This document shows positions 21,741-37,059 of a stretch of DNA of 64,000 nt, piece by piece. The stretch comes from an uncultured Alphaproteobacteria bacterium (GTDB lineage Bacteria > Pseudomonadota > Alphaproteobacteria > UBA2966): NCBI GenBank assembly GCA_958295725.1, contig OY282368.1, positions 1,282,124 through 1,346,123 of the forward strand, in the 5' to 3' direction. Positions within the stretch are counted from its first letter, which is position 1; every line of letters begins with the position of its first letter. A program made the position numbers and the translations under genes. Under the pieces are notes generated by a model. That model ran no database searches and had not been told where the DNA came from. It saw only the letters and a list, made by a program, of their open reading frames with translations.

Positions 21741-23445
21741 CACCGCGCCCGGAGCGTTCGCGGACGACGATCCGGTCACGTTCGAGGTGGTGAAGAACAG
21801 CCTCTATTCGATGGCCGCGGAAATGCGGGTCGTTCTGTCGAAAACGGCCTATTCGCCGATCCTGAAGTCGGCGGGCGATTTCTCGTGCGGCATCTTCGAC
21901 ATGCGGGGCGACATGGTGGCGCAAGGGCCGGATTTGCCGATGCATCTCGGCTCGATGCCGCTGGCCGTCAAGGCCGTCATCCGCGCCTGGGAGGAGATTG
22001 CGCCCGGCGACGTGTTCATCCACAACGATCCGTACTTCGGCGGCTCGCATCTGCCGGACGTCAACGTGGTGACGCCTGCCTTCGCGGACGGCGGGCGCCT
22101 GCTGGGGTTCGTCTGTCTGCGGGCCCATTGGCCGGACGTGGGCGGCGGCGCGCCCGGCAGCTACGGCGTCGAGACCGAGATATTCGCCGAGGGCCTGCGT
22201 CTGCCTCCCGTCCGGTTGTATCGCCGGGGCGAGCCCGTGCGCGAGGTCGAGGACATCATCTTCGCCAACGTGCGGACGCCGGAGGAGGGACGGGGCAACC
22301 TTCGCGCCCAGGTCGGTGCCAACCGTCGCGCGGCGGCCCGGCTCGAGGGACTGGCGCGCCGTCATGGGGCGGACCGCTTGTTGCGTATCATGCGGGGCGT
22401 GATGGACCGTTCCGAGGCGATGATGCGCCGGGCCCTGGCGGCGTTGCCCGACGGCGAGGGGAGTTTCGAGGACTTCTGCGACGGCGACGGCATCCTCGAG
22501 CCGGGCGAGACCGAGGATTCGCCGTTCGCCATCAGGCTGCGCGTGAGGAAGAGCGGCGACACGCTCGCCGTCGATTTCGCGGGTACCGATCCGGTCGTGC
22601 GAGGTCCCATGAACTCGCCCCTCGCGGTGACGGCGTCGGGGGTCTACACGGCCGTGAAGACCGTGGCCGACTCGGACGCGGCGATCCCCCCGAATTCGGG
22701 CTGCTGGCGTCCGATCTCCGTGAACGCCGAGCCCGGGACTGTCGTCAACGCCACGTTTCCCGCGCCGGTGGTGTACGCCAACCACGAGATCGCCCACCGG
22801 GTCTGCGACATGGTGTTCATGGCCATGTCGGGCTTCGCGCCGGACAACGTCATGGCGTGCTCCCAGGGAACGTCGGCCATTCTCGCCATGGGCGGCATCG
22901 ACCCGCGCGACGGCGCCCGCTACGTCAACTACGAGGTCGTCAAGGGCGGGTTCGGTGCGCGCCCGGGCAAGGACGGCATCAACGCTATCGCCGCCAGCGT
23001 CGCCAACACGGCGAATACGCCGGTGGAGGTCGTGGAGATGAGCTTTCCGCTACGGGTCGACCGCTACGAGCTGATCCCGGACTCGGGCGGAGCCGGGGAG
23101 TACCGCGGTGGTCTGGCGGCCCGCCGCGTGTGGAAGGTTCTCGGCCACGTGGCGGAGGCCACGGTGTGCTGCGAGCGGTCCAAGTCGCCGCCGTTCGGCC
23201 TGTTCGGGGGCGGGGCGGGCGCACCCGCGCGCGTCTACCTGATCGAGGCCGACGGCGCACGGCGCGATCTCAACAGCAAGGAGCACTTCCTCGCGCCCGA
23301 AGGCTCCGAGATCTGGTACGAGGTGCCCGGATCGGGCGGGTTCGGCCCGCCGTCGAAGCGCGATCCGGCGAAGGTCAGGGCAGACGTCCGCGACGGATAC
23401 GTCAGCGCCGAATCGGCCCGGCGCGATTACGGCGTCGAGGTTTAG
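21733..23445 (+). CDS. hyuB: Hydantoinase/5-oxoprolinase subunit B (HyuB family)
   Basis: 8-bp overlap with hyuA. Conserved FEVVKNSLYSMAAEM...KSAGDFSCGIFD motif. Confidence 0.85.
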   Translation: MADTAPGAFADDDPVTFEVVKNSLYSMAAEMRVVLSKTAYSPILKSAGDFSCGIFDMRGDMVAQGPDLPMHLGSMPLAVKAVIRAWEEIAPGDVFIHNDPYFGGSHLPDVNVVTPAFADGGRLLGFVCLRAHWPDVGGGAPGSYGVETEIFAEGLRLPPVRLYRRGEPVREVEDIIFANVRTPEEGRGNLRAQVGANRRAAARLEGLARRHGADRLLRIMRGVMDRSEAMMRRALAALPDGEGSFEDFCDGDGILEPGETEDSPFAIRLRVRKSGDTLAVDFAGTDPVVRGPMNSPLAVTASGVYTAVKTVADSDAAIPPNSGCWRPISVNAEPGTVVNATFPAPVVYANHEIAHRVCDMVFMAMSGFAPDNVMACSQGTSAILAMGGIDPRDGARYVNYEVVKGGFGARPGKDGINAIAASVANTANTPVEVVEMSFPLRVDRYELIPDSGGAGEYRGGLAARRVWKVLGHVAEATVCCERSKSPPFGLFGGGAGAPARVYLIEADGARRDLNSKEHFLAPEGSEIWYEVPGSGGFGPPSKRDPAKVRADVRDGYVSAESARRDYGVEV

Positions 23446-23455
23446 CTTACGAGAG

Positions 23456-24955
23456 GTGCGCGACATGCAAGAAGAGGTGCGCGACATCTGGAACCCCGGA
23501 ACGGGCATCACGGATGTGGATACCGATTGGGAGAACCTGTCCGTCTCGGAGATTCCGGGAATCAAGGCGATATGGCGCGACCAGCGGGAACGCCTCAAGG
23601 GAACGAATCTCGTTTCCGACTTCAACGAGCGGCTCGGGCGCGAATGGGCGATCGAGACCGGCATCATCGAGAACCTCTACGACATCGAGCGCGGAGTTAC
23701 TCAGACACTGATCGACCGGGGGTTTCGGGAAGAGTTGCTGGCCCACGGCTCGACCAACCGTCCGCGTGAATTCGTCCTTCAACTGCTGCGCGATCAGAAA
23801 CGGGCCCTCGATGGCGTGTTCGATTTCGTGAAGGGCGCGCGGCCCTTGTCGGCCTCCTACATCAAGGAGCTCCATGCCGTGCTGCTTCGGAGCCAGACGG
23901 TCACGGAAGGGATCGATTCGCTCGGCCGGCCCGTCGAGGTAGAACTGATCAAGGGCGACTGGAAGAACCAGCCCAACCATCCGGTCCGGGACGGCGTGAC
24001 CTACAGGTACTGTCCGCCGGAGCATGTGGCGGGCGAGATGGAGAGACTCGTCGAACTGCACGCGGAGCATGTCGCCAGGGAAATGCCGGCGGAAGCGCAG
24101 GCGGCCTGGCTGCATCATCGGTTCACGCAGATCCATCCGTTCCAGGACGGCAACGGCCGGTTGGCGCGGGCCCTCGCGTCGCTCGTCCTGATCCAGCACG
24201 GTCTTTTCCCGCTGGTCGTGACCAGGGACGACCGGACGGCCTATCTCGATGCTCTCGAAGCCGCCGATGATGGCGATCTCAAGCCACTCGTCGACCTGAT
24301 CGCCACACTTCAGAGAGTTCAATTCCGCAAGGCGGTGACGCTGGCCGAAACGGTATTGTCCGACAAGACTGACGTCGGGGCGATGCTGGACGGACTCCTC
24401 AAGGCTGCCGATAAGACCGCCGTTGAAAGAAGGCAGGAGCTTAAAGGGGTTTTCGATATAGCTGGCGCGGTAAAGAAACGTTTGCATGAACGGCTGGATG
24501 AAATCGCTCCGGATGTCACAAACGCGTTATTGAAGATAACGCCTTCGGGCGCGGCCTGGATCAAGGTGAAAGACGACAAGACCGGCCATTGGTACCGGGC
24601 GCAGATCATCCAGAACGCAAAACATCATCTGGGCTACTTCGTCAACTTCGGTGAGTTCCGTTCCTGGGTGGCGCTGCATATGACTTGGGAACGGCGGGCG
24701 CGGCTGGTGTTCGCGATCCACGGTATCGGACACGGGTTCACCGGAAGCCTGATCTGCGCGCCGTTCCTGGAGATTCTGGACGAGGACGAGGACGAGGACG
24801 AAGACGGGCACCGGCGCTCCACGCTCGTTCCGGTGGCGGAAGAAGGGTTCATCTTCTTTTACAACGACACGGAGGAGGCGGTCCTGAAGAGGCTCCAGCC
24901 GTGGCTCGAAAACGTGCTCAAGATCACCCTGAAGCAATTGACCGAGAACCTCTGA
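23456..24955 (+). CDS. Fic-family protein (class II, intramolecular inhibitory motif) with a long uncharacterised C-terminal domain
   Basis: Fic active-site motif HPFQDGNGRLAR. N-terminal inhibitory motif TGIIEN (S/TxxxE(G/N)). A C-terminal extension of about 230 aa with an acidic DEDEDEDED run. GC falls locally around 24300-24650. Confidence 0.8.
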   Translation: MRDMQEEVRDIWNPGTGITDVDTDWENLSVSEIPGIKAIWRDQRERLKGTNLVSDFNERLGREWAIETGIIENLYDIERGVTQTLIDRGFREELLAHGSTNRPREFVLQLLRDQKRALDGVFDFVKGARPLSASYIKELHAVLLRSQTVTEGIDSLGRPVEVELIKGDWKNQPNHPVRDGVTYRYCPPEHVAGEMERLVELHAEHVAREMPAEAQAAWLHHRFTQIHPFQDGNGRLARALASLVLIQHGLFPLVVTRDDRTAYLDALEAADDGDLKPLVDLIATLQRVQFRKAVTLAETVLSDKTDVGAMLDGLLKAADKTAVERRQELKGVFDIAGAVKKRLHERLDEIAPDVTNALLKITPSGAAWIKVKDDKTGHWYRAQIIQNAKHHLGYFVNFGEFRSWVALHMTWERRARLVFAIHGIGHGFTGSLICAPFLEILDEDEDEDEDGHRRSTLVPVAEEGFIFFYNDTEEAVLKRLQPWLENVLKITLKQLTENL

Positions 24956-24995
24956 CGCGGGCGACCGGCCGGCTCTCCGGCCGGGATTCCCGGCG

Positions 24996-25886
24996 CTATC
25001 CGCTCCCGTCGTAGCGGTCGTCCCACAACGTCATCAGCGCCGGGCTTTCCCACGCGCCCCTGCCGCGCGCATGGACGGCCGTGTTGAACTGGGCGATGAG
25101 CGCGGTGACCGGGAGCGCGACGCCGAACCGCCGCGCCTCGTCCAGGCAAAGGCCGAGATGGATCATCAGGGAGTCGATGCCGCCGTCCGCGGGGTCGAGA
25201 TCGCCGTCGATCATGCGCCGGATCCGATGGTCGAACCACCAGGACTGCGCCGAGCCCTCGGCGAGCAGCGAGAAAGCCTTGTCGAGATCGAGGCCGGACG
25301 CGCGGGCGAACGCCACTCCCTCGGCGAGGCCCTGCATGGTCGCCGAGATCAGGATCTGGTTGACCATCTTCGCGAGCTGACCGTGCCCGCTCGGCCCGAC
25401 GCGCTCGGCGGTTCGCGAATAGGCGACGAGATACGGCCGCGCCGCCGCCACGCCGGCCTCGGCGCCGCCGATCATCACGGCCAGCTCTCCGGCGTCGGCG
25501 AGCTCCTCCGCCCCCGACACCGGCGCGTCCAAGTAGTAGATGCCGCGTTCCGCGGCCGCCTCGGCCGACGCCCGCGCGGCCCGCGCCGTCATCGTGTCGT
25601 GATCGACGAACACCGCGCCTTCAGACATCGTCCGGAAAGCGCCCGCCGGCCCCTGGGTCGCCTCCCGCGACTCGTCGTCGCCGCCGACACAGGCGGCGAT
25701 GTAGACGGCGCCGTCCGCGGCCTCGGCGGCCGTGCGGGCGGCCCGTCCGCCATGCGCGGCGACGAACGCGTCCGCCTTCTCGGGCGCGATGTCGTGAACC
25801 GTCACGTCGTGACCCGCGTCGGCGAGATGCCTCGCCATGGGTCCGCCCATCCGGCCGATGCCGATGAATGCGACCTTGTCCACCAC
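24996..25886 (-). CDS. NAD-binding 3-hydroxyisobutyrate dehydrogenase-like oxidoreductase
   Basis: VAFIGIGRMGGPMARHLADAGH Rossmann motif of the 6PGDH/HIBADH family. Confidence 0.8.
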   Translation of the reverse strand: MVDKVAFIGIGRMGGPMARHLADAGHDVTVHDIAPEKADAFVAAHGGRAARTAAEAADGAVYIAACVGGDDESREATQGPAGAFRTMSEGAVFVDHDTMTARAARASAEAAAERGIYYLDAPVSGAEELADAGELAVMIGGAEAGVAAARPYLVAYSRTAERVGPSGHGQLAKMVNQILISATMQGLAEGVAFARASGLDLDKAFSLLAEGSAQSWWFDHRIRRMIDGDLDPADGGIDSLMIHLGLCLDEARRFGVALPVTALIAQFNTAVHARGRGAWESPALMTLWDDRYDGSG

Positions 25887-25914
25887 TGGAACGCCTCCGG
25901 AAGGTTGCCCGCGC

Positions 25915-26703
25915 TCAGCTCTCGCGATAATCCGGCGTCCGCTTTTCGAGGAAGGCGCTCACGCCCTCGTCGCGTTCGCCGCTCGCCAGACACAACGCGA
26001 AGAGCTTGCGCTCGTAGTCGATGCCGGCGGCGAGATCGGCGTCCGGACTCGCCAGGACGGCGTCCCGCGCCGCCATCAGGGAGACGGGGCCCTTGACCTG
26101 CCATTTACGGCAGACCTCGCGGCCCGCGTCCATCAGTTCGCCGTCCTCGTGAACGGCGTTGACCAGCCCGACAGCGAGCGCCTCGTCGGCGGATATCGGC
26201 TCGCCCAGGGTCACCATCGCCATGGCCCGTCCGAGGCCGACCATGCGGGTCAACCGCTGGGTTCCGCCGCTGCCGGGAATGACGCCGAGATTGATCTCGG
26301 GCAGGCCGAGCCGCGCCGAGCGCGCCGCGATGCGGAGCGTGCAGGCCAGCGCGATCTCGAGGCCGGCGCCGAGGCAATGGCCGTTGACGCAGGCGAGCGT
26401 CGGCAGGCGCATGGTCTCCAGCAGGCGCGGAAGCTCGCGGCGCAGGCCGGCCCTGGTGGAGAGCTCGCTCGCGACCGTGCGTTCCTTCAGCTCGTTGATG
26501 TCGGCGCCGGCGGAGAAGGCCCTGTTGCCGGCGCCGGTCAGGATGACGCAGTCCGCCTCGCCGTCGTCCTCCAGGGAACGCAGGGCGTCCATGCATTCCT
26601 CCCGCATCGGCAGGCTCATGGCGTTGCGCCGCTCGGGATCGGTGAGGGTGACGGTCGCGATGCGTTCCTCGATATCGACCGAAATCCGGGTGTAGGCGGC
26701 CAT
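25915..26703 (-). CDS. Enoyl-CoA hydratase/isomerase (crotonase family)
   Basis: Crotonase fold motifs AFSAGADI and ACVNGHCLGAGLEIALACTLRIA. Start trimmed to MAAYTRIS by residue count. Confidence 0.85.
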   Translation of the reverse strand: MAAYTRISVDIEERIATVTLTDPERRNAMSLPMREECMDALRSLEDDGEADCVILTGAGNRAFSAGADINELKERTVASELSTRAGLRRELPRLLETMRLPTLACVNGHCLGAGLEIALACTLRIAARSARLGLPEINLGVIPGSGGTQRLTRMVGLGRAMAMVTLGEPISADEALAVGLVNAVHEDGELMDAGREVCRKWQVKGPVSLMAARDAVLASPDADLAAGIDYERKLFALCLASGERDEGVSAFLEKRTPDYRES

Positions 26704-26722
26704 GGTTTCTCCTCTCCGGGTT

Positions 26723-28288
26723 TCAGGCGGATGCCGCTTCCAGCAGGCTGGCGGCGAGCCCGGCGCGAACGGTCTTGCCGCTCGCGTTCCTGGGGATCGT
26801 CGCCACCACCTCGAGCCGGCGAGGCTTCTTGTAGTCCGCCAGTTCCCGCGCGCAGTGGGACTGGAGCTCCGCCAGGTCGGGGCGCTCTCCACGGCGCGGG
26901 ACGACGCACGCGGCGACGATCTGCCCCCACTTGGCGTCGGGCAGGCCGACGACGGCGCAATCGAGCACCGCCGGGTGAGACATCAGCACCCGCTCGATCT
27001 CGGCCGGGTGGATGTTGACGCCTCCGCTGATGACGATCTCCTTCAGCCGGCCGACCAAATGGAGGTATCCATCCTCGTCGAGATAGCCGAGATCGCCGGT
27101 GTGGAACCACCCGTCCGTGAAGGCCGCCTTCGTGGCCTCGGGATCGTCCAGGTATTCGCGCATGACCGAGGGATTGAGGCACAGTATCTCGCCGACCTCG
27201 CCGGCGGGCAGGGCCGCGCCATTCTCTCCGACGATCCGGATCTCGACGCCGGCGAACGGCCGGCCGACCGACGCAGGCTTGCGCCGCTGATCCGCGGGCT
27301 CCAGGACCGTCATGCTGTTCGACTCCGTCGAGCCGTAGTAGTCGAACAGACGGGGCGTGACGCGCTCCAGCACCTTTTCCTTGATCGCCGGTTGCAGGGG
27401 CGATCCGCAGGTCACGAGGCGGGACAGGCTGTCCAGTTTCGGCGGGAAGGAGCCGCGTTCCAGCTCGTCGAGCACCATGACCAGGACGGTGGGCACGACG
27501 AGGCTCGACGTCACCCGTTCGCCAGCCACGAGCGACAGATACTCCGCGGGATCGAAGTCGCGCTGGATGCGCACGCGACCGCCCACGCACAGATGCATCA
27601 GCGTGAACGTGAGGCCCGCCGAATGCACCTGGGGCATGACGCCGAGGTAGGTATCCTCGGGGCCGAGGCCGTAGACGTCGATCGCCTTGTAGATCCAGGC
27701 CATGCGGGCGCGATGGGTGGAGAGCGCGCCCTTGGGCTCGCCCGTCGTGCCCGAGGTGAACATCAGGCCGAAGTCGTCGTCGGGAGAAACGTCGGGAAGC
27801 GCGCCGAACGCCGATTCGTGCGGTCGCTCGAACGCGGCGTCGCTCGCGTTTCCGCCGGGGTCGATGGCGACGATCTCGGGGCGGACGACCTCGGCGCGCT
27901 CGACCGCCCGCTCGATCGTGTCCGCGCGGTCGACGGCGGTGACGAGGCAGCGGGGACGGGCGAGGGCGAGAAGGCCGGCGGCCTCGCCTTCCTTCAGACG
28001 CGGGTTGATGGGCGAGAAGACCCCGCCCGCCCGCGCCACCGCCAGAACGACGACGACATAGGCGATGCAGTTGGGGAGATACGCCGAGACGACGTCCCCC
28101 TTCCGCACGCCGAGGCCGGTCAAGGCCGTCGCGAAGCCGTCGGCGCGGCGGTCGAGATCGTCGAACGTCAACGAGGCGCCGCCGTCGGTCAGGGCGATCC
28201 TGTCGGGCGTGGTCCGGGCGACTGTCGCGCCGATCCGCCCGACGAGGAAATCCTCGTCTCCCCGGGGTCGCTCAGCCCTCGTCGTCAT
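26723..28288 (-). CDS. AMP-dependent acyl-CoA synthetase/ligase
   Basis: AMP-binding motif FTSGTTGEPKGA and C-terminal GKTVRAG. Confidence 0.85.
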   Translation of the reverse strand: MTTRAERPRGDEDFLVGRIGATVARTTPDRIALTDGGASLTFDDLDRRADGFATALTGLGVRKGDVVSAYLPNCIAYVVVVLAVARAGGVFSPINPRLKEGEAAGLLALARPRCLVTAVDRADTIERAVERAEVVRPEIVAIDPGGNASDAAFERPHESAFGALPDVSPDDDFGLMFTSGTTGEPKGALSTHRARMAWIYKAIDVYGLGPEDTYLGVMPQVHSAGLTFTLMHLCVGGRVRIQRDFDPAEYLSLVAGERVTSSLVVPTVLVMVLDELERGSFPPKLDSLSRLVTCGSPLQPAIKEKVLERVTPRLFDYYGSTESNSMTVLEPADQRRKPASVGRPFAGVEIRIVGENGAALPAGEVGEILCLNPSVMREYLDDPEATKAAFTDGWFHTGDLGYLDEDGYLHLVGRLKEIVISGGVNIHPAEIERVLMSHPAVLDCAVVGLPDAKWGQIVAACVVPRRGERPDLAELQSHCARELADYKKPRRLEVVATIPRNASGKTVRAGLAASLLEAASA

Positions 28289-28985
28289 GATCGGCGACGA
28301 GGGCCTTGAGCCGTTCCAGGGTCGCGGACAACGGTATCCGGGCGGGACAGACGCTTTCGGCGCGGGCCATCGCCTCCGCGCTCAGGCCGCGCGCTTCCCC
28401 GGCGATGTCCCCCAGACGCGCGATCCCGGCGCCGTCGCGTTCGTCGAGCGCGAGCATGAGCACGCGGTTCAGGGCGGCCGGCCCGACGCCATCGCCGCTC
28501 GTCGCCTCACCGGCGACGGCGGAAACGCAGGCGCCGCAGGTGATGCAGCCGTTCCGCGCCTCGATCGCGGCTCGTTCGTCGGAATCGGGCGGCAGGACCG
28601 GCAGATCGCGTCGATCCGGTTCCCGTGGACGAAGGGCGGCCCCGGCGCGGGCGAGGCCCTCGAAGAAGGGCCGCATGTCGACGATCAGGTCGTGTCGCGC
28701 GGGCAGGCCCCGCAACGGCTCGACGCGCAAGGTTCCGCTCTCGACGTCGCCGAGAGCGGTCTGGCAGGTCAGGGCTTCCTTGCCGTCGATCACGACGGCG
28801 CAGGCTCCGCACATGCCGACGCGGCAGGCGTAACGAAACCCGAGCGTGGGATCCTCGTTCTCGCGGATCCAGTTCAAGGCGTCGAGGACGCGCGCGTGCG
28901 CGGACCGGACCGGCACCTCGAAGCGGTTCCGGCCCGCCGGGTCGGTGCGGACGACTTCGAGGGTGACGGTCGCGTTCGATCCCAT
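28272..28985 (-). CDS. Succinate dehydrogenase/fumarate reductase-type iron-sulfur subunit
   Basis: 237 aa. 2Fe-2S motif CRVGMCGAC...C and a CITCGAC 4Fe-4S-type motif. 17-bp overlap with the ligase start. Confidence 0.65.
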   Translation of the reverse strand: MGSNATVTLEVVRTDPAGRNRFEVPVRSAHARVLDALNWIRENEDPTLGFRYACRVGMCGACAVVIDGKEALTCQTALGDVESGTLRVEPLRGLPARHDLIVDMRPFFEGLARAGAALRPREPDRRDLPVLPPDSDERAAIEARNGCITCGACVSAVAGEATSGDGVGPAALNRVLMLALDERDGAGIARLGDIAGEARGLSAEAMARAESVCPARIPLSATLERLKALVADHDDEG

Positions 28986-29005
28986 GTTCGATCCGGTCGC
29001 GCCGC

Positions 29006-30712
29006 TCACGCGGGGATGAGGATATCGCCCTGCAACGCCTCGGGCGTGCGGCGGGTGAAGGCCACGGAGCGGGGTTCGGTACGCGGTTTTCCGTCGGCGC
29101 CGCGTCGCTGGACGAAATTGACGAGGAAGCGGTCGTCGGAGTCGGGGAAGTCCTCGCGGAAATGGCTGCCCCGGCTCTCTTCCCGGAGTTCCGCCGCCGC
29201 GCCGATGAGGCGCGCCACGTCGATCAGGTTCTCGGCGTCGAGACGCTCCTGGAGGTCGGGGTTTCCGCCGCGTCGCGTCGGCATGGCCAGGGCGCCGAGC
29301 TCGTCTTCGATGGCGTCGATCTCGCCCGCCGCCCGCGTCAGGCCGTTCGCGTCGCGGAGAACGCCGAGGCGGTCCCAGGCCAGGGCGCGCAACCGCTTCT
29401 TCAGCTCGAAGGGCCGTCCGGTGATCCCGCCGGAACCCTCCAGGCGGGTGCGGGCGGCGTCGAGCCGGTCCCTGTCGATGGACGCGCGTGTCCCTTCCGT
29501 CGCGTGACGGGCGATCGATTCGCCGGCGATGGCCCCGAACACCATCGATTCGGCCACTCCGTTGCCGCCGAGGCGGTTGGCGCCGTGGACGCCGCCGGCG
29601 TCCTCGCCGGCCGCGAACAGCCCCTCCAGGGTCGCTCGGCAGTCGGCGTCGATGCGGATACCTCCCATCTGGAAGTGCGCCGTGGGGGTTACCTCGATCA
29701 GGTCCGTCGCCATGTCGGCGCCGACGGTCAGGCAGCGGGCGTACATGCCTGGGGAGGACTCGAGCAGGAACTCCTTCCCGAGATGCCGGACGTCGAGATA
29801 GACGCCCCCGCTGGCCGTGCCGCGGCCGGCCCGGACCTCCATCATGCCGCTCCGCGAGACGCGGTCGCGGGTGGAGCGTTCCATCTTCTCGGGATCGTAG
29901 CGCGCCATATAGCGCTCGCGACCGGCGTTGAGCAGATGGCCGCCGGCGCCCCGCAGGCCTTCCTCGAGGACCGTCCCGTTCATCAGCGAGCCGTCCACGA
30001 TAAGTCCCGTGGGATGGAACTGCATCATCTCCATGTCGACGAACTCGGCGCCGGCCCGGTAGGCCATGGCGAGGCCGTCCCCCGACTTCTCGAGCGAGGC
30101 CGCGGTGATGCGGTAGAGCGGGGCGGCCCCGCCCGTCGCCAGCAGGACGGCGGTGGTGTGGACGGCGATGAGCTCGCCGCTGTGAAGGTCGAGCAGCAGT
30201 GCGCCGGCCACCGCCCGGCCCGAGGCGTCCAGCAGCAGGTCGACGCCGCGGACTTCGTCGAGCAGCTCGATGTCGCGAACCAGAACCTGTTCCGCGAGGC
30301 GGCCGACGATCTCGATTCCGGTGAGATCGCCGCGGTGGATCGTCCGGTTGAACGACTGTCCGGCGAGCGCGCGCTGGTGGATGGCGCCGTCGGCGTCGCG
30401 GTCGAAGACGCAGCCGAAGGCGTTCTCCATCTCGAAGACGCGCTCCGGCGCTTGCGTGACCAGGGTCCAGGCCAGCTCCTGATCGTTGATCAGGCCGCCG
30501 CCCCGGATCGTGTCGTCGTAATGCCTGTCGAACGAATCGTCCTCGTGCAGGACGGCGTTGTAGCCGCCCTGGACCATGCGGGTGCATCCGCTCTTGCCGA
30601 ACAGGCCCTTGCTGGCCACGACGATATCGAGGCCGGGCGCGGCGTCGCGCGCGTGGATCGCCGCGTACAGCGCGCCGCCGCCGCCGCCGATGATCAGGAT
30701 ATCGCAGGTCAT
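29006..30712 (-). CDS. FAD-binding fumarate reductase/succinate dehydrogenase-type flavoprotein subunit
   Basis: 568 aa. N-terminal DILIIGGGGGALYAA, the FAD-attachment context MQFHPTG, and the C-terminal RGSHFREDFP motif. Confidence 0.8.
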   Translation of the reverse strand: MTCDILIIGGGGGALYAAIHARDAAPGLDIVVASKGLFGKSGCTRMVQGGYNAVLHEDDSFDRHYDDTIRGGGLINDQELAWTLVTQAPERVFEMENAFGCVFDRDADGAIHQRALAGQSFNRTIHRGDLTGIEIVGRLAEQVLVRDIELLDEVRGVDLLLDASGRAVAGALLLDLHSGELIAVHTTAVLLATGGAAPLYRITAASLEKSGDGLAMAYRAGAEFVDMEMMQFHPTGLIVDGSLMNGTVLEEGLRGAGGHLLNAGRERYMARYDPEKMERSTRDRVSRSGMMEVRAGRGTASGGVYLDVRHLGKEFLLESSPGMYARCLTVGADMATDLIEVTPTAHFQMGGIRIDADCRATLEGLFAAGEDAGGVHGANRLGGNGVAESMVFGAIAGESIARHATEGTRASIDRDRLDAARTRLEGSGGITGRPFELKKRLRALAWDRLGVLRDANGLTRAAGEIDAIEDELGALAMPTRRGGNPDLQERLDAENLIDVARLIGAAAELREESRGSHFREDFPDSDDRFLVNFVQRRGADGKPRTEPRSVAFTRRTPEALQGDILIPA

Positions 30713-30765
30713 GGATTGCACGCGGGTCTCTCCGGACGCCTCTCGGGGACAGGCCGCGCCGGAAG

Positions 30766-32142
30766 CTACAGGCCGTCGGCGAGGTCCGACAGCGCGCGGT
30801 CGATCCTCTCCACGATGTAGTCGACGTCGTCGCTGGTCGTGATGAGGGGCGGCAGGATCGGGATCACGCCGTCGGCGGCTCGCGTCAACAGGCCGTGGCC
30901 GTCGAGGAGGGCGGTAATCCTGTCGCCGATGCCTGCGGCCGCCGGGAACCGTTCCCGCGTCTCGCGGTCCCCGACCAGCTCGACGGCGGCGAACAGCCCC
31001 TTGCCGCCCCTGATATCGCCGACGAAAGGATGTCGGTAGAGCACCTGGAGGCGCTCGAACAAGTACCGCCCCATCTTCGCGGAGTTCTCGACCAGGTTCT
31101 CCTTCTCGATGATGTCGAGATTGGCGAGCGCCGCGGCGCAGGCGATCGGGTGCCCACCGTAGGTGTACAGATGGCGGAACTTCTCGTCCTCGCCGCCCAT
31201 GAACGTGTCGGCGATCCGCTTGCGGACGATCGCGCCGGCGGCGGGGAGATAGCCGCTGCTCAACTGCTTGGCCATGGTCGTGATGTCGGGCCGCGCGTCC
31301 CAGTGCATGCTGGCGAACCATTTGCCCGTCCGCCCATATCCGGTGACCACCTCGTCCATGATCATCAGGACGCCGAAGCGGTCGCAGATCTCGCGAACGG
31401 TCGGCCAGTAATCCTCGTGCGGGATGTAGACGCCGCCGGTGATCGACATCGGCTCGCCGATGAAGGCGGCCACCGTCTCCGGTCCCTCGTCCTCGATGAC
31501 GCGCTCGACCTCGCGCGCGCACTCAAGCGTGCATGAGCCGTTCGCCGCGCACAGCGCGCAGTGGTACTCGTTGGGCTGGGTCACGTGGATGTTGCCGGGT
31601 TGCAGCGGACCGTAGTCCCCGGGCGCCGCGATGCCGCCGCCGCCCGCGGCCATCGTCGCGTGCGTGCCGCCGTGGTACGAACCGGCCCTGCTGACGACCT
31701 TGTAGCGGCCCTTCTCGCCTTGGATCCGGTGGTATTTCTTGGCGATCTTGAGCGCGACCTCGTTGGACTCGGCGCCGCCGTTGGTCAGGAACACCCGCGA
31801 TCCCGTATCGGGCGCGAGGCTGGCGATCCTGGCCGAGAGTCGGATGGTGTTGGGGTTCGTGCCCGCCCAAGGGTTCGATGTGATCCCTCGCATGGCCTCG
31901 TATACGGCGTCCGCGATCTCCCCGCGACCGTAGCCCACCGCCTGTAACCACATCCCCGACATCATGTCGAATATCTTTCGCCCGTCGATGTCGGTCAGCC
32001 AGCAGCCTTCGCCGCTCGCGTAGATCTTCAACGACTCCGGGGCCTTGGCGAAGTCGTTCATCTGGTGGAACGGGAGCCACAGATGATCGACCGCCATTCG
32101 CCGCAGGTCTTCGTGCGCTCGTTCGCGTCCTTGTCCGGTCAT
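30766..32142 (-). CDS. Class-III (omega) aminotransferase, PLP-dependent
   Basis: 458 aa. Fold-type-I motifs including the MIMDEVVTGYGRTG region and the PLP-lysine context (TMAKQLSSG). Confidence 0.85.
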   Translation of the reverse strand: MTGQGRERAHEDLRRMAVDHLWLPFHQMNDFAKAPESLKIYASGEGCWLTDIDGRKIFDMMSGMWLQAVGYGRGEIADAVYEAMRGITSNPWAGTNPNTIRLSARIASLAPDTGSRVFLTNGGAESNEVALKIAKKYHRIQGEKGRYKVVSRAGSYHGGTHATMAAGGGGIAAPGDYGPLQPGNIHVTQPNEYHCALCAANGSCTLECAREVERVIEDEGPETVAAFIGEPMSITGGVYIPHEDYWPTVREICDRFGVLMIMDEVVTGYGRTGKWFASMHWDARPDITTMAKQLSSGYLPAAGAIVRKRIADTFMGGEDEKFRHLYTYGGHPIACAAALANLDIIEKENLVENSAKMGRYLFERLQVLYRHPFVGDIRGGKGLFAAVELVGDRETRERFPAAAGIGDRITALLDGHGLLTRAADGVIPILPPLITTSDDVDYIVERIDRALSDLADGL

Positions 32143-32173
32143 GTCGTCGGCTCTCCAGGGACGTCTTCACCCG

Positions 32174-33556
32174 TCATGAAGCGAGCACGGCGTCGGCACG
32201 TTCGCGCGCGGCGGTCGCGCGCTCCGAGTCGCCCAAGGCCTCCAGGGTCTCGGCGTACTTGAGCCAGTTTCCGCGGCTGTTGGGTCTCTCGGCGACCCGC
32301 TCGGCGAGCAAGGCACGCGCGAGGGCGAGGCGCTTGTTCCGGATCGCCGATTCGATCAGCACCTGGGCGAAGATATCGCGCTGCGCGTGGCTACCGCCGA
32401 GGCAGGCGAGGTCGTAGCGCAGGGGCAGCAGGCCATCGACCACGGCGTCATGGTCGTCCCTGGCGAAGTCCAGCAAGGCCTGGCAGATCGGGATCGCCAC
32501 GGATTCCATGGTCGCGGCGGCGAAGTTGTCCGGCGTCCCGGCGAACGCGCGCAGCGACGCCAGCAACTTCTCGGCGGCGTCGAAACGCCTGTCGGCCGCC
32601 AACGCCATCATCGTGTGGGTGTCGGTGAAGGCGAGGACGTGGTCGTCCACGTGCGCCTCCATGGCGTCCGCCATGGGCTTCCAACGGCCGCCCACGTCGA
32701 CGCCGAGGAGGTCGAGGCGCAGCAGCATGGAGGCGCCATTCTGGACATCGAGATAGAAGTCCCATGCCTCGGGCGTGACGGAGCGGTCGAACAGCGCCAG
32801 CGCGCTGCCATAGTCGCCTGTTTCGACCGAGTACATGGTCCGGTGCCACCAGAGATGGCCCCTGAAGGGATTGCGGTCCTCCCAGGCGTCGGCCGGGTAA
32901 TCCAGCCAGTCCATTCCCTCGCGCACGCGACCTTGCATCTCGAGGACATGGGCGACCGCGTGGATCGCCCACAGGTCGTCCGGGTTGGCCTCGACGGCGC
33001 GACGCCCGAATTCCTCGGCCCGCGCGTACTCGCCGCATTCCTCCAGGCCGAAGGCGTACATGCCTTGAACGCCGCCATAGCCGGGCACGGACTCGTCCCA
33101 CCGGTCGATGACCCGGGCGACGCCGTCGCGGAGGTCGCCCGCCCGGCCCATCCAGAAGGCGTTGTAGTGCTGCAGGCGCAGCGCCAGCAGGTCGTGGGGA
33201 TGTTCCCGGAGGATTTCGTCCCAGACGGCGCAGGCCGCCGCGAGGTCCCCGCGGGACCAGGCGCCGAGCGCCGCCACGTGGGCGGCTTCCCGGCTCGTGA
33301 CCTTGCCGACGCCGGCTTCCGCGGCGGCGAGGCTCTCCTCGATCTTGGGCCGCACCGCGGTGGTCCCGAACAGGTTGAAGAGATAGCCCTTGAAGCACTG
33401 CCCCATGACGAAGCCGGGGTCGGCCTCGAGCATCCGTTTGACGGCGTCCCCGACTCCCGCCCGATAATCCAGATACTGCGCCATCGTCTCGTCGAAGCCC
33501 TCGGCCGCGGCAGCGCTGTCGGTGGTCAGGGCGAGACCGCGTTCGTCGGCGTACAT
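32174..33556 (-). CDS. TPR-repeat protein (TTC38-like)
   Basis: All-helical, with repeated A/L-rich TPR-like units. RBS GAGGAG lies before MYADERG. Confidence 0.5.
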   Translation of the reverse strand: MYADERGLALTTDSAAAAEGFDETMAQYLDYRAGVGDAVKRMLEADPGFVMGQCFKGYLFNLFGTTAVRPKIEESLAAAEAGVGKVTSREAAHVAALGAWSRGDLAAACAVWDEILREHPHDLLALRLQHYNAFWMGRAGDLRDGVARVIDRWDESVPGYGGVQGMYAFGLEECGEYARAEEFGRRAVEANPDDLWAIHAVAHVLEMQGRVREGMDWLDYPADAWEDRNPFRGHLWWHRTMYSVETGDYGSALALFDRSVTPEAWDFYLDVQNGASMLLRLDLLGVDVGGRWKPMADAMEAHVDDHVLAFTDTHTMMALAADRRFDAAEKLLASLRAFAGTPDNFAAATMESVAIPICQALLDFARDDHDAVVDGLLPLRYDLACLGGSHAQRDIFAQVLIESAIRNKRLALARALLAERVAERPNSRGNWLKYAETLEALGDSERATAARERADAVLAS

Positions 33557-33833
33557 GGCTGCTCCTCTCGCGGGTCGGGACGGCATGGTGTAGACGGGAA
33601 TCCCGAAATCTTCAACGCCGTCCCGATCTACAATTCATATAACAAACAAAATGAATGTTGTAATACTTTGATTGAAATGAATTTTTGAACTCACAACACC
33701 GACCCCGCGATCCGGGACTCGATCGCTTCCCATTGCCTGTCTCCGCCCGGAGATCGCCGATGTCTGGATTGGCGTCGACGGGGCGAGACCGGGGCCGCGG
33801 GAGCGCGCGCGGGCCGCAGCCGTCGCCTTCCGG

Positions 33834-34169
33834 TCACGAGTCCGGCGCTCGGGACTCGTCGAGGCGGACGTATATCTTCCCGTTCTCGACCTTGGTGGCG
33901 TAGGTGTCGAGGGCGACGGACACCGGCGCGCCCTTGGGCTTGCCGGTGGGGATGTGGAACCGCCCCTGATGGACCGGACACTCGATGATGTCGTCGATCA
34001 CGACCCCTTCCGACAGGAAGGCGAAGGCGTGGGTGCAGATGTTCTCGGTGGCGTAGAACTTTCCCTTCACGTTGTAGACGGCGACGGCGGTGCCCGCCAC
34101 GTCGACGCCGATCACGTCCTCTTCCTCGATATCGTCGGTCGACGCGACCAAGCGCCACTCTCCGGCCAT
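33834..34169 (-). CDS. Rieske [2Fe-2S] ferredoxin
   Basis: CTH...CPVHQG Rieske ligand boxes. 111 aa. Confidence 0.8.
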   Translation of the reverse strand: MAGEWRLVASTDDIEEEDVIGVDVAGTAVAVYNVKGKFYATENICTHAFAFLSEGVVIDDIIECPVHQGRFHIPTGKPKGAPVSVALDTYATKVENGKIYVRLDESRAPDS

Positions 34170-34206
34170 GCAACGGGTCTCCTGTCGTCCGTGGACGGAC
34201 GTCAGT

Positions 34207-35214
34207 TCAGAGGGATTGGACGATGCGGAATCGGAATTTCCGTTCCAGGTGGTGACGTAGCACGTCCCGCTGGACCGCCCAGTACCCCTTGTCGACGGGG
34301 TTCATTTCGTGACCCACCTCGGCATGGAGCGCGGGCAGGGCGTGGAACGGAACGGACGGCGCCAGATGATGCTCGCAGTGATAGGGCATGTTCCAGCACA
34401 GGAACCGGGTCAGGGGACCGGTCCTCACGGTGCGGGCGTAGGTCCGGAGATCGAGCTTCCCTTCCGTGCAGCCGGTATGGTCGGCGATACGGATGGCCCG
34501 CGCCACGGGTACGCCGATGACCGTGGGGATAGCCCAGTAGATGGCGACGGCCCACGTCCCGAGAGCGACGCTGACGGCGGCGAGGCCGACGTAGATCGCC
34601 AGCATGACACGGGCTTCGAGGAAAATTCTGGGGAGCTGGTCCTCGGGCACGAACTGGCGGTTGAACGGGCGGATACGGCCCATGGAATGGCGCAGGATCC
34701 AGCCGATGTTCTTGATCCAGAGCTGGGTGGCCGTGACGTAGTACACGTAGTCCATCCACGACGAGGGGCTCGGCAGGACCAACTCCGGGTCCTTGCCGAA
34801 TTCCTGGGCATGGGTGTGATGGCCGGTATGGTCGTAGCGGAAATACGTCGGCGGCCACAGGATCATGATGCCCGTGATCCAATGCACGGTCTCGTTGAGC
34901 CAGCGGGTGCGGAAGGCGGTACCGTGGCTGCACTCGTGCATCGGCGCGAACAGATGCCCCAGCATGACGCCGTGCAGAAGCATCGCCGGGATCAGCCATC
35001 CCGTCCCCGTGGCCAGATACACCAGGTATCCGGTGCCGAGGACGATCGACATGTGTCCGCCGAAATAGATCAGGCCGTGGCGATCGGTGCGCTTGGTGAA
35101 GGGCTTGAGCCGCTCGCGCGAGACGATCTCCCGCTGCGCAGCCAGGAGCTTCGCGTTGGCCTCGGGGCTGGTCAGTTTTCGGGTCCGGAGGTCGTCGACG
35201 GCTACGGCTTCCAA
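34207..35214 (-). CDS. Membrane fatty-acid desaturase/hydroxylase family protein (three His boxes)
   Basis: His boxes HECSH, HTGHHTH, HCEHH. Multiple TM segments. Confidence 0.75.
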   Translation of the reverse strand: MEAVAVDDLRTRKLTSPEANAKLLAAQREIVSRERLKPFTKRTDRHGLIYFGGHMSIVLGTGYLVYLATGTGWLIPAMLLHGVMLGHLFAPMHECSHGTAFRTRWLNETVHWITGIMILWPPTYFRYDHTGHHTHAQEFGKDPELVLPSPSSWMDYVYYVTATQLWIKNIGWILRHSMGRIRPFNRQFVPEDQLPRIFLEARVMLAIYVGLAAVSVALGTWAVAIYWAIPTVIGVPVARAIRIADHTGCTEGKLDLRTYARTVRTGPLTRFLCWNMPYHCEHHLAPSVPFHALPALHAEVGHEMNPVDKGYWAVQRDVLRHHLERKFRFRIVQSL

Positions 35215-35390
35215 TGTCGCACCCTTTCGCTAAACTCCCGCTGGAGCGGTTCGGGAGAACATTGCCGAATCTAGCAGCGGCGCTCCGTACCCGCAAGCGA
35301 TCGCGGATCCGCGATCGAAGGCGCGGGTCGCGTCTCGTCCGAACCGGTCCGGGCGTCGCGACGATGCGAAAATCATGTCTCGGGGAGGCG

Positions 35391-36992
35391 ATGAAACAGA
35401 TGTCAGCACCGAATTTCCTTTTCATTCAGGCCGATCAGATGGCGGCGCCGGTTCTTCCGGTCTACGGCCACCCGCTGGTCAAGGCGCCGTATCTGGAAGG
35501 TCTGGCGCGCGACGGGGTCGTCTTCGAGAACGCCTACTGCAACAACCCGATCTGCGCGTCGTCCCGTTTCTCGATGATGGCGGGTCAGCTTCCCTCGCGC
35601 ATCGGCGCCTATGACAACGCGGCGGAGTTTCCCGCGACCGTGCCGACCTTCGCCCATTACCTGCGGGCGCTCGGCTACGCGACGTGCCTGAGCGGCAAGA
35701 TGCACTTCGTCGGTCCGGACCAGCTCCACGGCTTCGAGGAGCGGCTGACCACCGATATCTATCCGTCCGATTTCGGCTGGACGCCCGACTGGTCCAGGGG
35801 CGACAGGCAATTGCCGCCGTCGGGCATGAGCATGCGCAGCGTCGTCGAGGCCGGCCTCTGCCGGCGCAGCCTGCAGATCGACTACGACGAGGACGTCGGC
35901 TTCCAGGCGGTGCGGAGGATCTACGACTACGCGCGCGACCCGGACGGCAAGCCGTTCTTCCTCGCGGCGTCGTTCACGCATCCGCACAACCCGTTCACGA
36001 TCACGCCGGAGTTCTGGAATCTCTACGACCACGACGATATCGACCTGCCCAGGTATCCCGGCAAGCCGGTCGAGGAGCGCGATCCCTGGAGCCGGCGCTA
36101 CCACTACCTGATCCGCCAGGACGAGCACGAGGTCGCCGACGAACACCTGCGCAACGCGCGGCATGCCTACTACGGGATGGTGAGCTATGTCGACAGCCAC
36201 GTGGGCCGGCTGCTCGACGCGTTGGAAGCCACGGGTCTCGCCGACAACACGGTCGTGATCTTCACCGCGGACCACGGCGAAATGATGGGCGAGCGCGGCA
36301 TGTGGTACAAGTTCAACCCCTTCGAATGGTCCGTGCGCGTGCCGTTGATCGTGCGCGCGCCGGGGAACGCCAAGGGGCGGCGCGAGGCGAAGTCGGTCTC
36401 GCTCGTCGACCTGCTGCCGACGTTGCTCGACCTCGCCACGGACGGCGGCCCGCCCGATCTCGTGGAACCCGTCGACGGACGCACATGGTCCGGAATGCTC
36501 CACGGCCCGGACGAGTCGCGCCCCGACGAAGCCATGATCGAGTTCACCGCCGAGGGCGCCATCGCGCCTTGCCTGATCCTGCGCAAGGGTCCCTACAAGT
36601 ACGTCTACAGCGAGCCCGATCCCGGCATGATGTTCAACGTCGAGACCGACCCGGGAGAGCAGGAGAACCTCTGTGGTGATCCCGCGCACAAGGACGTCGA
36701 GGACGAACTGCTGGCGGACATCCTCGGCCGGTGGGATCCGCGGCGCATCGAGGAAGACATCCTGGAAAGCCAGCGGCGGCGTCTCTTCATCCAGGACGTG
36801 CTGACGAGCGGCCGGCCTACCCCGTGGGACTATCAGCCGATGCGCGATGCCTCGCGGCAATACCTGCGGTCGGGCGGCAGCCCGACGATGGTCAAGGGTC
36901 TCGCGCGTTTCCCCTACATGGAGCCGGTGCCCCCGGACTTCCCGCGGCCCGACGCCGTTCGACCCGCGCGGGAAAAGGAGGCGCGATCATGA
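35391..36992 (+). CDS. Choline-sulfatase-like (BetC family) sulfatase with an atypical active-site motif
   Basis: Strong BetC-like blocks (YDNAAEF...GKMHFVGPDQLHGFEERLTTDIYPSDFGWTPDW). The motif reads C-A-S-S-R (35553..35567) instead of the canonical C-x-P-x-R. RBS GGGGAGG. An alternative start at 35364 exists. Confidence 0.8.
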   Translation: MKQMSAPNFLFIQADQMAAPVLPVYGHPLVKAPYLEGLARDGVVFENAYCNNPICASSRFSMMAGQLPSRIGAYDNAAEFPATVPTFAHYLRALGYATCLSGKMHFVGPDQLHGFEERLTTDIYPSDFGWTPDWSRGDRQLPPSGMSMRSVVEAGLCRRSLQIDYDEDVGFQAVRRIYDYARDPDGKPFFLAASFTHPHNPFTITPEFWNLYDHDDIDLPRYPGKPVEERDPWSRRYHYLIRQDEHEVADEHLRNARHAYYGMVSYVDSHVGRLLDALEATGLADNTVVIFTADHGEMMGERGMWYKFNPFEWSVRVPLIVRAPGNAKGRREAKSVSLVDLLPTLLDLATDGGPPDLVEPVDGRTWSGMLHGPDESRPDEAMIEFTAEGAIAPCLILRKGPYKYVYSEPDPGMMFNVETDPGEQENLCGDPAHKDVEDELLADILGRWDPRRIEEDILESQRRRLFIQDVLTSGRPTPWDYQPMRDASRQYLRSGGSPTMVKGLARFPYMEPVPPDFPRPDAVRPAREKEARS

Positions 36993-37059
36993 CCCGTATG
37001 GCCGGACGTCGACGCGGCCTGTCTGGACACTCGGACAGATCGGGGAACAGGACGCGCCT

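Follow-up and report, generated by a model that had tools for sequence, protein, structure and literature searches.

A nine-gene alphaproteobacterial cluster joins a MocD/MocE-type oxygenase module to an SdhAB-like module that may act on a succinate analogue

The DNA analysed here (the window) is a stretch of 64,000 nucleotides of contig OY282368.1, from an uncultured marine-type alphaproteobacterium, and carries a cluster of nine genes on its minus strand between positions 24996 and 35214. The cluster is real, and it is a lineage-specific fusion of two separately evolving modules. Module A consists of a membrane desaturase, a Rieske ferredoxin and a tetratricopeptide repeat (TPR) protein, divergent from a choline sulfatase; module B has a core of flavoprotein, iron-sulfur (Fe-S) protein, acyl-coenzyme A (CoA) ligase and enoyl-CoA hydratase, to which an aminotransferase and a dehydrogenase are added. 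Two modules are distinguished because each occurs without the other in distant lineages. A conserved, probably co-transcribed catabolic cluster off the textbook routes, as proposed in the original prediction, is therefore retained, whereas the single dedicated pathway headed by the desaturase gives way to two independently distributed modules. Our combined reading, held tentatively, is that of a composite two-module operon in which module B works on a succinate analogue, 3-sulfopropionate being the leading substrate.

Since the window has about 70% guanine plus cytosine (GC), raw lists of open reading frames (ORFs) are crowded with spurious frames; gene frames were chosen by third-position GC and families were assigned by Pfam and NCBIfam scans. 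The cluster starts with an FA_desaturase-family membrane protein with three His boxes (34207-35214; PF00487, 132.6 bits), followed on the same strand by a soluble, 111-residue Rieske [2Fe-2S] ferredoxin resembling MocE and AndAb (33834-34169; PF00355, 70.7 bits), a TTC38-like TPR protein with weak TPR Pfam matches (32174-33556), a class-III omega-aminotransferase of the pyruvate-dependent type (30766-32142; PF00202, 315 bits), a flavin adenine dinucleotide (FAD) flavoprotein resembling SdhA, FrdA and TfrA (29006-30712; PF00890 and PF02910), a 237-residue SdhB-like Fe-S protein (28272-28985; PF13085 only), an AMP-forming acyl-CoA ligase (26723-28288; PF00501 and PF13193), a short-chain enoyl-CoA hydratase of the crotonase type (25915-26703; PF00378, 213 bits) and, last, a beta-hydroxyacid dehydrogenase resembling 3-hydroxyisobutyrate dehydrogenase (HIBADH; 24996-25886; PF03446 and PF14833). 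This is the gene order and strand originally predicted, although with nine genes rather than ten. The true start of the TPR gene lies 30 nt inside the longest ORF, a 460-residue database protein being 100% identical. Intergenic distances run from a 17-nt overlap (ligase start and Fe-S gene) to 53 nt, with 37 nt between the desaturase and Rieske genes, 31 nt between the TPR and aminotransferase genes and 20 nt between the flavoprotein and Fe-S genes; the Rieske/TPR gap (33557-33833, minus strand) is the exception. No terminator-like site was found on the minus strand inside the cluster, a sigma-70 promoter scan gave no match and an Rfam scan of the intergenic regions for riboswitches and known RNAs matched no family.

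The joined nine-gene order is confined to the window's own lineage (loci L003, L099 and L083/L084). The P0010 locus, L001/L002, L092, L093 and L094 carry the module A trio together with the choline sulfatase and a LysR regulator; their desaturase orthologues are 60-67% identical, and none of the flavoprotein, Fe-S, ligase, hydratase, dehydrogenase and aminotransferase genes is present there; in L001 and L092-L094 the Rieske stop overlaps the TPR start. Elsewhere module A is followed by an FNR-type ferredoxin reductase (two lineages), an iron-dependent alcohol dehydrogenase (Fe-ADH), an HSL-type esterase and a zinc-dependent alcohol dehydrogenase (Zn-ADH); the reductase (Fer2/FAD_binding_6/NAD_binding_1) is carried by L001 and L094. 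L004 (desaturase 64% identical) keeps the Rieske and sulfatase genes but, at the thresholds used, yielded no TPR gene. The module B core stands without module A in L085-L088 and L101 (betaproteobacterial and other contigs), in the order IclR regulator, flavoprotein, SdhC, SdhD, Fe-S protein, ligase, hydratase; identity to the window is 63-69% for the flavoprotein, 49-54% for the Fe-S protein, 51-56% for the ligase and 66-72% for the hydratase. These five loci have no desaturase, Rieske, TPR, aminotransferase or HIBADH gene. Further downstream they encode an SsuA-like/NMT1 binding protein, a protein of the PrpD/MmgE family and another crotonase.

The same gene order recurs in three lineages related to the window (83-94% identity): L003, which has no aminotransferase, L099 and L083/L084. 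As this order is kept in all of them, the cluster is real and inherited. One 3.52-Mb contig in public data encodes several of the proteins at 100% identity. For the original prediction, set to fall if the genes were always apart in relatives, the outcome is mixed: all of the genes are together in close relatives and, in distant ones, together only within each module. L003 is the chromosome of a metagenome-assembled genome (OZ241357.1) with about 90% DNA identity over window positions 23260-39369. The flavoprotein of L099 is 86% identical and that of L083/L084 83%, and both loci have the divergent sulfatase. L003 has lost the aminotransferase gene through a clean deletion that left an open 12-codon remnant, and in L083 and L099 the gene is present; the aminotransferase is ancestral yet dispensable, the latter because the clean deletion is found in the nearest relative. 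The HIBADH-like dehydrogenase is present in L003, L083 and L099 and missing in the betaproteobacterial loci.

Indels within the cluster sit at module junctions: an insertion of 270 bp in the window, a small GIY-YIG gene that in L099 separates the TPR gene from the aminotransferase gene, and the aminotransferase deletion of L003. The window insertion (about 270 bp, lineage-specific) lies in the Rieske/TPR gap, where the original prediction had placed an AT-rich gap of 240 bp; the gap is real, but it measures 277 nt, and its AT-rich core is about 80 nt long at 23-30% GC. L003 lacks the insertion and has the TPR ATG 2 nt past the Rieske stop. The sequence of the gap is unique within the window and the fetched loci. 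Its GC-rich half folds better than shuffled controls (z = -2.85), and the AT-rich stretch that follows holds AATTCAT/ATGAATT inverted repeats; the spacer may be an internal promoter or regulatory region. Downstream of the last cluster gene the content varies, with a Fic gene in a lower-GC island in the window and L003, Fic plus restriction-modification genes in L099 and cupin plus 2-oxoglutarate-dependent oxygenase genes in L083. The Fic-domain gene of the window (23456-24955, plus strand; GC of the island 0.61 versus about 0.70) comes immediately after the last cluster gene and is convergent with it, and the site looks like a hot spot for gene exchange.

Independent distributions of the two modules, and a junction that collects insertions (the 270-bp AT-rich insert with its possible own promoter; the GIY-YIG gene of L099), would also suit two functionally unrelated neighbours, with module A serving choline-O-sulfate or quaternary amines and module B forming an independent downstream operon; that module A elsewhere precedes an FNR-type reductase, an Fe-ADH, an esterase and a Zn-ADH fits the same explanation. 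It is nevertheless rather unlikely, as four lineages, down to 83% identity, share order and strand, 31 nt separate the TPR gene from the aminotransferase gene with no terminator-like site found, and the loss of membrane anchors and [3Fe-4S] ligands from the SdhAB-like enzyme (described below) coincides with fusion to module A.

Module A is a two-component membrane di-iron oxygenase of a known kind, the MocD/MocE type. The His boxes of the desaturase, HECSH, HxxHH and HxxHH (H93/E94/H97, H129/H132/H133 and H279/H282/H283), are invariant in 31 homologues, and the protein has 335 residues, a length shared by database relatives that are 95% identical. In the Rieske protein the motif is CxH...CxxH (CTH...CPVH); its top curated models are AndAb, the anthranilate-dioxygenase ferredoxin (98 bits, under cutoff), and the MocE family TIGR02377 (91.5 bits, not reaching the cutoff of 136.15). 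In 47 of 80 genome loci (34-94% identity) the desaturase homologue has a Rieske gene no more than 1.5 kb away. On a Rhizobium plasmid the annotation reads fatty acid desaturase family protein, then MocE family 2Fe-2S type ferredoxin, and a Ruegeria plasmid has the desaturase/Rieske pair amid sarcosine oxidase, Rieske oxygenase and MttB-family genes, a methylated-amine context. According to PMC10107442, the mocDEF operon is needed for rhizopine catabolism, which Bahar et al. (1998), cited there, modelled with a ferredoxin oxygenase complex. The combination of desaturase and Rieske genes, which had been called unusual, is instead the established mocD/mocE arrangement, with a named NCBI MocE family model and adjacency in those 47 loci. 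The pairing is ordinary; what is new in module A is its third partner, the TTC38-like protein. The ferredoxin would hand electrons to the di-iron centre of the oxygenase, which would hydroxylate a C-H bond beside a heteroatom, in effect a dealkylation or demethylation, and the substrate is probably a zwitterion related to choline-O-sulfate or a quaternary amine.

In the AlphaFold model the TPR protein is an all-helical TPR solenoid (predicted local distance difference test, pLDDT, 94.8). Because Foldseek matches the model to generic TPR scaffolds only (query-normalised TM-score at most 0.56), it offers no enzyme-fold clue, and a sequence search of the PDB gave no meaningful match. In the family alignment 67 columns, of which many are polar, are invariant. 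Plasmid and metagenome homologues occupy unrelated contexts, which argues that the TPR protein is not an obligate oxygenase subunit. The most consistent link of the TTC38-like family is with choline-sulfate genes, and the clearest hint comes from plasmid p352-1 of Cupriavidus sp. EM10 (L090), where betA-like, choline sulfatase and TTC38-like genes stand in a row (4566-9281); a YeiH sulfate exporter precedes them, and neither a desaturase nor a Rieske gene is present.

The choline sulfatase gene of the window (35391-36992, plus strand, start approximate) is of the BetC type and diverges from the cluster across an intergenic region of about 150 bp. It passes the TIGR03417 equivalog (641.8 versus 433.45 bits) and has the Choline_sulf_C domain (PF12411). 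The original prediction did not mention it, although no other gene accompanies the oxygenase module so constantly: all loci with a desaturase of at least 60% identity have a sulfatase homologue no more than 10 kb from it. BetA, BetB and BetI genes do not adjoin the sulfatase in the window, and BetA-like genes were found near trio genes in L092, L093 and L090 only; L092 and L093 have OpuAC-type binding protein and GMC (BetA-like) genes nearby. Literature searches on bacterial TTC38, on choline sulfatase with desaturase/Rieske and on choline-O-sulfate monooxygenases found nothing relevant.

Beside module A, L001 (3561-5979) and L094 (1300-3806) carry a 3-sulfinopropanoyl-CoA desulfinase equivalog (654 versus 600 bits) and a CaiB-type CoA-transferase; the desulfinase-type protein of L094 is 75% identical to that of L001, another organosulfur link for module A. 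The acyl-CoA dehydrogenase of the window (38112-39338) was considered as such a desulfinase and rejected (139.7 bits against the cutoff of 600; 24% identity). Likewise rejected was the Fe-ADH near the sulfatase in relatives as a GbsB-type choline dehydrogenase, which scores 252 bits against 464 for 4-hydroxybutyrate dehydrogenase, both below cutoff.

The flavoprotein of module B scores 577.1 bits with TfrA (cutoff 718), 428 with the generic SdhA/FrdA model and 341 with NadB, all below cutoff, and this ranking places it on the Sdh/Frd/Tfr side and not with NadB or KstD. In an alignment to Escherichia coli FrdA the residues H232, R287, H355 and R390 and the hinge Thr are retained. The covalent-FAD His44 of FrdA (RSHT) is replaced (KSGCT in the flavoprotein), and T244 (MTEG), reportedly an active-site Thr that forms a hydrogen bond to the substrate, is Glu (LEEG). 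The motifs KSGCTRMVQGG and LEEGLRGAGG are invariant in the 120 best homologues and occur in 63 of 64 scored metagenome loci, which were fetched with a pattern that contains EEG and does not include the KSGCT-type motif. By its sequence the flavoprotein belongs to a large, distinct and uncharacterised SdhA-like clade.

As predicted, the SdhAB-like pair has no membrane anchor: 20 nt separate its two genes, and the 64 kb hold no SdhC or SdhD homologue. In the orthologous loci, L085-L088 and L101, SdhC and SdhD genes separate the flavoprotein gene from the Fe-S gene. The Fe-S subunit of the window, L083 and L099 keeps the [2Fe-2S] cysteines and the CxxCxxC...CP set for [4Fe-4S]; exactly the three [3Fe-4S] cysteines, which the alignment shows to be kept in L085 and L087, are replaced. 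The window type has CITCGACVSAV versus CLTCGACFSAC of the SdhCD-linked orthologues, and AEAMARAESVCP versus CHTLGNCSVVCP, so that CxxCxxCxxxC ends in V and CxxxxxCxxxCP has become S/A...CP. This loss of [3Fe-4S] ligands coincides with the missing SdhC and SdhD and with the fusion to module A. Judged from these residues, the SdhAB-like enzyme is a soluble FAD/[2Fe-2S]/[4Fe-4S] protein that must use a soluble partner.

The ligase shares 53-56% identity with the one encoded after the Fe-S gene in L085-L087, and among solved proteins feruloyl-, oxalyl- and malonyl-CoA ligases are closest to it. The hydratase is 70-72% identical to that of L085-L087, with short-chain enoyl-CoA hydratase and then 3-hydroxypropionyl-CoA dehydratase as nearest solved structures, and has both catalytic Glu motifs of a crotonase (GAGLE and LPE). 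For the dehydrogenase all NCBIfam equivalogs are below cutoff, tartronate semialdehyde reductase scoring 184.7 versus 340.75. Omega-, putrescine- and polyamine:pyruvate transaminases are the nearest solved relatives of the aminotransferase. The ligase, an acyl-CoA dehydrogenase close by and the hydratase were also considered as DmdB, DmdC and DmdD, and no specific support was found.

The surroundings of the wider flavoprotein clade point towards sulfonates. De novo clustering of neighbours in 50 metagenome loci of at least 7 kb, with flavoprotein relatives 47-57% identical, gives a two-subunit Fe-S hydro-lyase resembling fumarase and tartrate dehydratase in 39-42 of the 50, an Ldh_2-family dehydrogenase in 25 (best match L-sulfolactate dehydrogenase, below cutoff), SdhC and SdhD in 22-23, a split UxaA-family pair in 19-20, a TctC binding protein in 19 and a permease of the TauE/SafE sulfite-exporter family in 13. 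The split UxaA architecture is that of the SuyAB sulfolactate sulfo-lyase. Annotated plasmids of cultured bacteria give the same picture: the clade member on pTAV3 of Paracoccus versutus adjoins a YeiH sulfate exporter, TauE, an Ldh-family gene and a tripartite tricarboxylate transporter (TTT); that of Sulfitobacter sp. THAF37, TauE and a TTT transporter; that of Methylobacterium radiotolerans, TauE, a UxaA pair and a thiamine pyrophosphate enzyme; and that of Pseudomonas sp. MPC6, TauE, a sulfate exporter and what is annotated as a CoA-acylating methylmalonate-semialdehyde dehydrogenase. SsuA-like or TctC binding proteins also lie beside clade relatives 42-57% identical. Where the window has ligase and hydratase, these relatives have the fumarase/tartrate-dehydratase-like alpha/beta pair, and the ligase and crotonase look like a non-orthologous, CoA-dependent replacement of the hydration step.

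Succinate, fumarate and malate have 3-sulfopropionate, sulfoacrylate and sulfolactate as their sulfonate analogues, and the conversions between the latter are those expected of an enzyme like succinate dehydrogenase followed by a fumarase-like one. A thesis route from homotaurine through 3-sulfopropionate and sulfoacrylate to sulfolactate in Roseovarius nubinhibens is cited by PMC11489063, which gives degradation of 3-sulfopropionate as otherwise unreported; for sulfoacrylate this was the one relevant paper that our literature search found. A second paper (PMC12421959) describes a Paracoccus wurundjeri cluster ('cluster 3') of 'fumarate and tartrate metabolism' plus a TauE homologue that is more abundant on the sulfosugar sulfofucose and whose flavoprotein may belong to the clade.

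Because distant clade members adjoin TauE, YeiH, SuyAB-like and Ldh_2 genes, we propose for module B the oxidation of a succinate analogue, its activation with CoA and its hydration, a general mechanism that we consider fairly probable. Module B would then parallel the succinate to fumarate to malate segment of the tricarboxylic acid (TCA) cycle. The soluble SdhAB-like enzyme would introduce the double bond, the ligase would form the CoA thioester of the unsaturated acid and the crotonase would hydrate this thioester, while the aminotransferase and the beta-hydroxyacid dehydrogenase would act on an aldehyde, either the entry aldehyde or a semialdehyde product. For the candidate substrate the route would lead from 3-sulfopropionate to 3-sulfoacrylate and 3-sulfoacryloyl-CoA, to which the crotonase, by analogy with DmdD, would add water at C3; the resulting alpha-hydroxysulfonate would fall apart into sulfite and malonate semialdehyde. 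HIBADH-type dehydrogenases and omega-aminotransferases are both enzyme types that act on malonate semialdehyde. 3-Sulfopropanal could be fed by homotaurine via the aminotransferase and by 3-hydroxypropanesulfonate via the dehydrogenase. Gene identities, the modularity, the changed active-site and cluster ligands and the gene contexts in relatives are shown by the data; the order of reactions, the substrate and any metabolic link between modules A and B are inferred, and the specific assignment of the window cluster to 3-sulfopropionate and homotaurine, made from sequence and gene context, is doubtful though possible.

Several observations weigh against this reading. A 10-kb surrounding of the cluster contains no TauE, YeiH or SuyAB-like gene in the window, L003, L083 and L099, nor does that of the module in the ligase/hydratase-type loci, and the sole TauE gene of the window is 27 kb from the cluster. 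As the cluster loci have no sulfite genes, the sulfonate assignment leans on relatives of 42-57% identity and on a weak SsuA-family match of the binding protein in L085-L087 (57.6 bits versus a cutoff of 163.5); the only hints for a sulfonate within the ligase/hydratase-type branch are this binding protein and one ComA-family gene. A Glu beside an anionic sulfonate is a non-obvious fit, the best curated model of the flavoprotein, TfrA, is a true fumarate reductase, and the substrate of the flavoprotein may be succinate or fumarate itself. No equivalog is reached by the ligase, the hydratase, the dehydrogenase or the aminotransferase, and the solved proteins nearest to them are generic. No aldehyde dehydrogenase that could convert 3-sulfopropanal to 3-sulfopropionate is in the cluster, the nearest being at 52679-54127. 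L085 has glutamate mutase genes downstream, which point to methyl-branched C5 acids. On the side of module A, the 64-kb window has no homologue of a ferredoxin reductase (MocF-like; the query was the Fer2/FAD_binding_6/NAD_binding_1 type of L001 and L094) and no regulator gene, and passage of the product of module A into module B is hypothetical.

The window-type loci, free of sulfite-handling genes, could also be read for a non-sulfur dicarboxylate. Module B might degrade an alkylsuccinate (methylsuccinate to mesaconate, its CoA thioester and methylmalyl- or citramalyl-CoA) or another such acid, with glyoxylate or semialdehyde products left to the aminotransferase and dehydrogenase. The flavoprotein conserves the dicarboxylate-binding residues, the best model of the dehydrogenase is tartronate semialdehyde reductase, and in L085 a PrpD/MmgE-family gene, a second crotonase gene and glutamate mutase genes come after the module, while two CaiB-type CoA transferase genes precede it; the CaiB-type neighbours at L001, which is a module A and not a module B locus, score against the succinyl-CoA:mesaconate CoA-transferase model. 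A lyase for methylmalyl- or citramalyl-CoA is absent from the cluster, however, glutamate mutase is missing in L087, the binding protein adjoining in L085-L087 matches only the SsuA sulfonate-binding family and the wider clade is tied to TauE, YeiH and SuyAB-like genes. We regard a non-sulfur dicarboxylate as unlikely.

A sulfur-free C3 pathway of beta-alanine, 3-hydroxypropionate or acrylate would give the aminotransferase (of the omega/beta-alanine:pyruvate type) beta-alanine and malonate semialdehyde, the HIBADH-family dehydrogenase 3-hydroxypropionate, and the ligase and hydratase 3-hydroxypropionyl-CoA and acryloyl-CoA, with the SdhAB-like enzyme as a fumarate- or acrylate-type enoate reductase. 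3-Hydroxypropionyl-CoA dehydratase is indeed the second-best solved relative of the hydratase, the best flavoprotein model is the reductase TfrA, and loss of the covalent-FAD His, missing here, favours the reductive direction in FrdA His44 variants. This pathway is improbable: both pairs of carboxylate-binding residues are kept, suggesting a substrate with two anionic groups and not acrylate, the betaproteobacterial orthologues come with quinone-type anchors and without aminotransferase and dehydrogenase, and the TauE, YeiH and SuyAB-like contexts of the clade are left unexplained.

Finally, that the SdhAB-like enzyme is itself the electron input of the oxygenase, passing electrons from its substrate through [2Fe-2S] and [4Fe-4S] to the Rieske ferredoxin and the membrane di-iron oxygenase without NAD(P)H, and that the whole is the missing aerobic 3-sulfopropionate/homotaurine route, is highly improbable (direct feeding of the ferredoxin by the soluble enzyme being in itself very unlikely), even though [3Fe-4S] and anchors are lost where the enzyme is fused to a reductase-less oxygenase operon and the transfer would not be thermodynamically absurd, because the donors that serve membrane desaturase-family enzymes, cytochrome b5 for example, lie near 0 mV.

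Should the succinate analogue be 3-sulfopropionate, the clade would provide the aerobic enzyme that is still missing for this C3 sulfonate. 3-Sulfopropionate is excreted by fermenters of sulfoquinovose and 2,3-dihydroxypropanesulfonate (DHPS) and also arises from homotaurine. The cluster marks a large, widespread SdhA-like clade whose signature is the missing covalent-FAD His and a Glu for the substrate-binding Thr. Its SdhAB-like pair is a natural 'minimal' complex II, with two soluble subunits and the [3Fe-4S] ligands gone, and makes a useful case in which to study the rewiring of such enzymes to new electron partners. It also defines a conserved MocD-like/Rieske/TTC38-like oxygenase module linked to choline sulfatase in marine-type Alphaproteobacteria. 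The TTC38 family has, to our knowledge, no known function in any organism, and this is a first genomic hint of a role for it.

Other features of the window lie further from the cluster. A TauD-family dioxygenase, 45% identical to the neighbour of the desaturase in L001, stands beside an aldehyde dehydrogenase (51507-54127), and a TauE/SafE-family permease is found at 62384-63139; these genes, 16-27 kb from the cluster, may share its metabolism. Hydantoinase/oxoprolinase A and B genes (19632-23445, plus strand) are convergent to the cluster, as in L083 and L099, and HydA/HydB genes also occur near desaturase or TTC38 homologues in L098, where HydB directly follows the TTC38-like gene, and in the P0057 locus. 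Positions 39370-44960 and 45706-46860 are missing in the approximately 90%-identical L003. The first of these segments holds an IS481-like helix-turn-helix/integrase transposase gene (40107-41282) and a gene for a surface lipoprotein assembly modifier (Slam). A duplication of about 1.85 kb with 91% identity (42687-44537 and 57935-59789) includes two Slam copies (42972-44327 and 58205-59578), the second preceded by an ORF for 511 amino acids (56629-58164) that has no Pfam match and possibly encodes lipoprotein cargo. A RPE65-family carotenoid-cleavage oxygenase (10947-12458, plus strand) and a myo-inositol-1-phosphate synthase (7361-8515, minus strand) are unrelated to the cluster.

Compared with known systems, module B resembles E. 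coli SdhABCD and FrdABCD in the domains of the flavoprotein, the N-terminal [2Fe-2S] domain, H232/R287/H355/R390 and the hinge Thr. Unlike complex II, the cluster has no anchors, no [3Fe-4S] cysteines and no covalent-FAD His, T244 is exchanged for Glu, and the SdhAB-like genes are set among a CoA ligase and a crotonase and not in a TCA operon. The methanogen thiol:fumarate reductase TfrAB is likewise soluble and anchor-less, and TfrA is the best curated model of the flavoprotein. However, the match to TfrA stays at 577.1 bits against the cutoff of 718, and that to TfrB at 103.2 against 385 over model positions 3-218 of 488 only; as the alignment stops at about position 218, the Fe-S protein lacks the thiol-oxidising C-terminal half of TfrB.

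With the C3-sulfonate loci (SuyAB, ComC/SlcC, TauE) the clade shares relatives that adjoin TauE, YeiH, Ldh_2 (the ComC family), SuyAB-like and TTT/SsuA-like genes, although the cluster of the window has no diagnostic sulfonate genes and its hydration would depend on CoA and not on an Fe-S hydro-lyase. An omega-aminotransferase, which a homotaurine route such as that to 3-sulfopropionate in Cupriavidus necator H16 would require, is encoded directly upstream of the flavoprotein. In the demethylation of dimethylsulfoniopropionate (DMSP) the CoA ligase DmdB is followed by the crotonase DmdD, which hydrates a heteroatom-substituted acryloyl-CoA and expels the heteroatom group. The proposed chemistry of ligase and hydratase on 3-sulfoacryloyl-CoA would follow the same logic, while no specific sequence relation to DmdB or DmdD was found, the relatives of the hydratase being generic with no NCBIfam equivalog reached.

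Module A resembles the MocD/MocE/MocF system for rhizopine (3-O-methyl-scyllo-inosamine) of Rhizobium and Sinorhizobium, in which a membrane desaturase-family protein is followed on the same strand by a Rieske ferredoxin of about 105 residues. Identity to an annotated desaturase/MocE pair is only 32% for the desaturase and 39% for the Rieske protein, and unlike the moc system the window has neither a MocF-type reductase nor an inositol or moc context and leaves the MocE cutoff unreached. Beyond the MocD/MocE pair, module A adds the TTC38-like partner and the neighbouring choline sulfatase.

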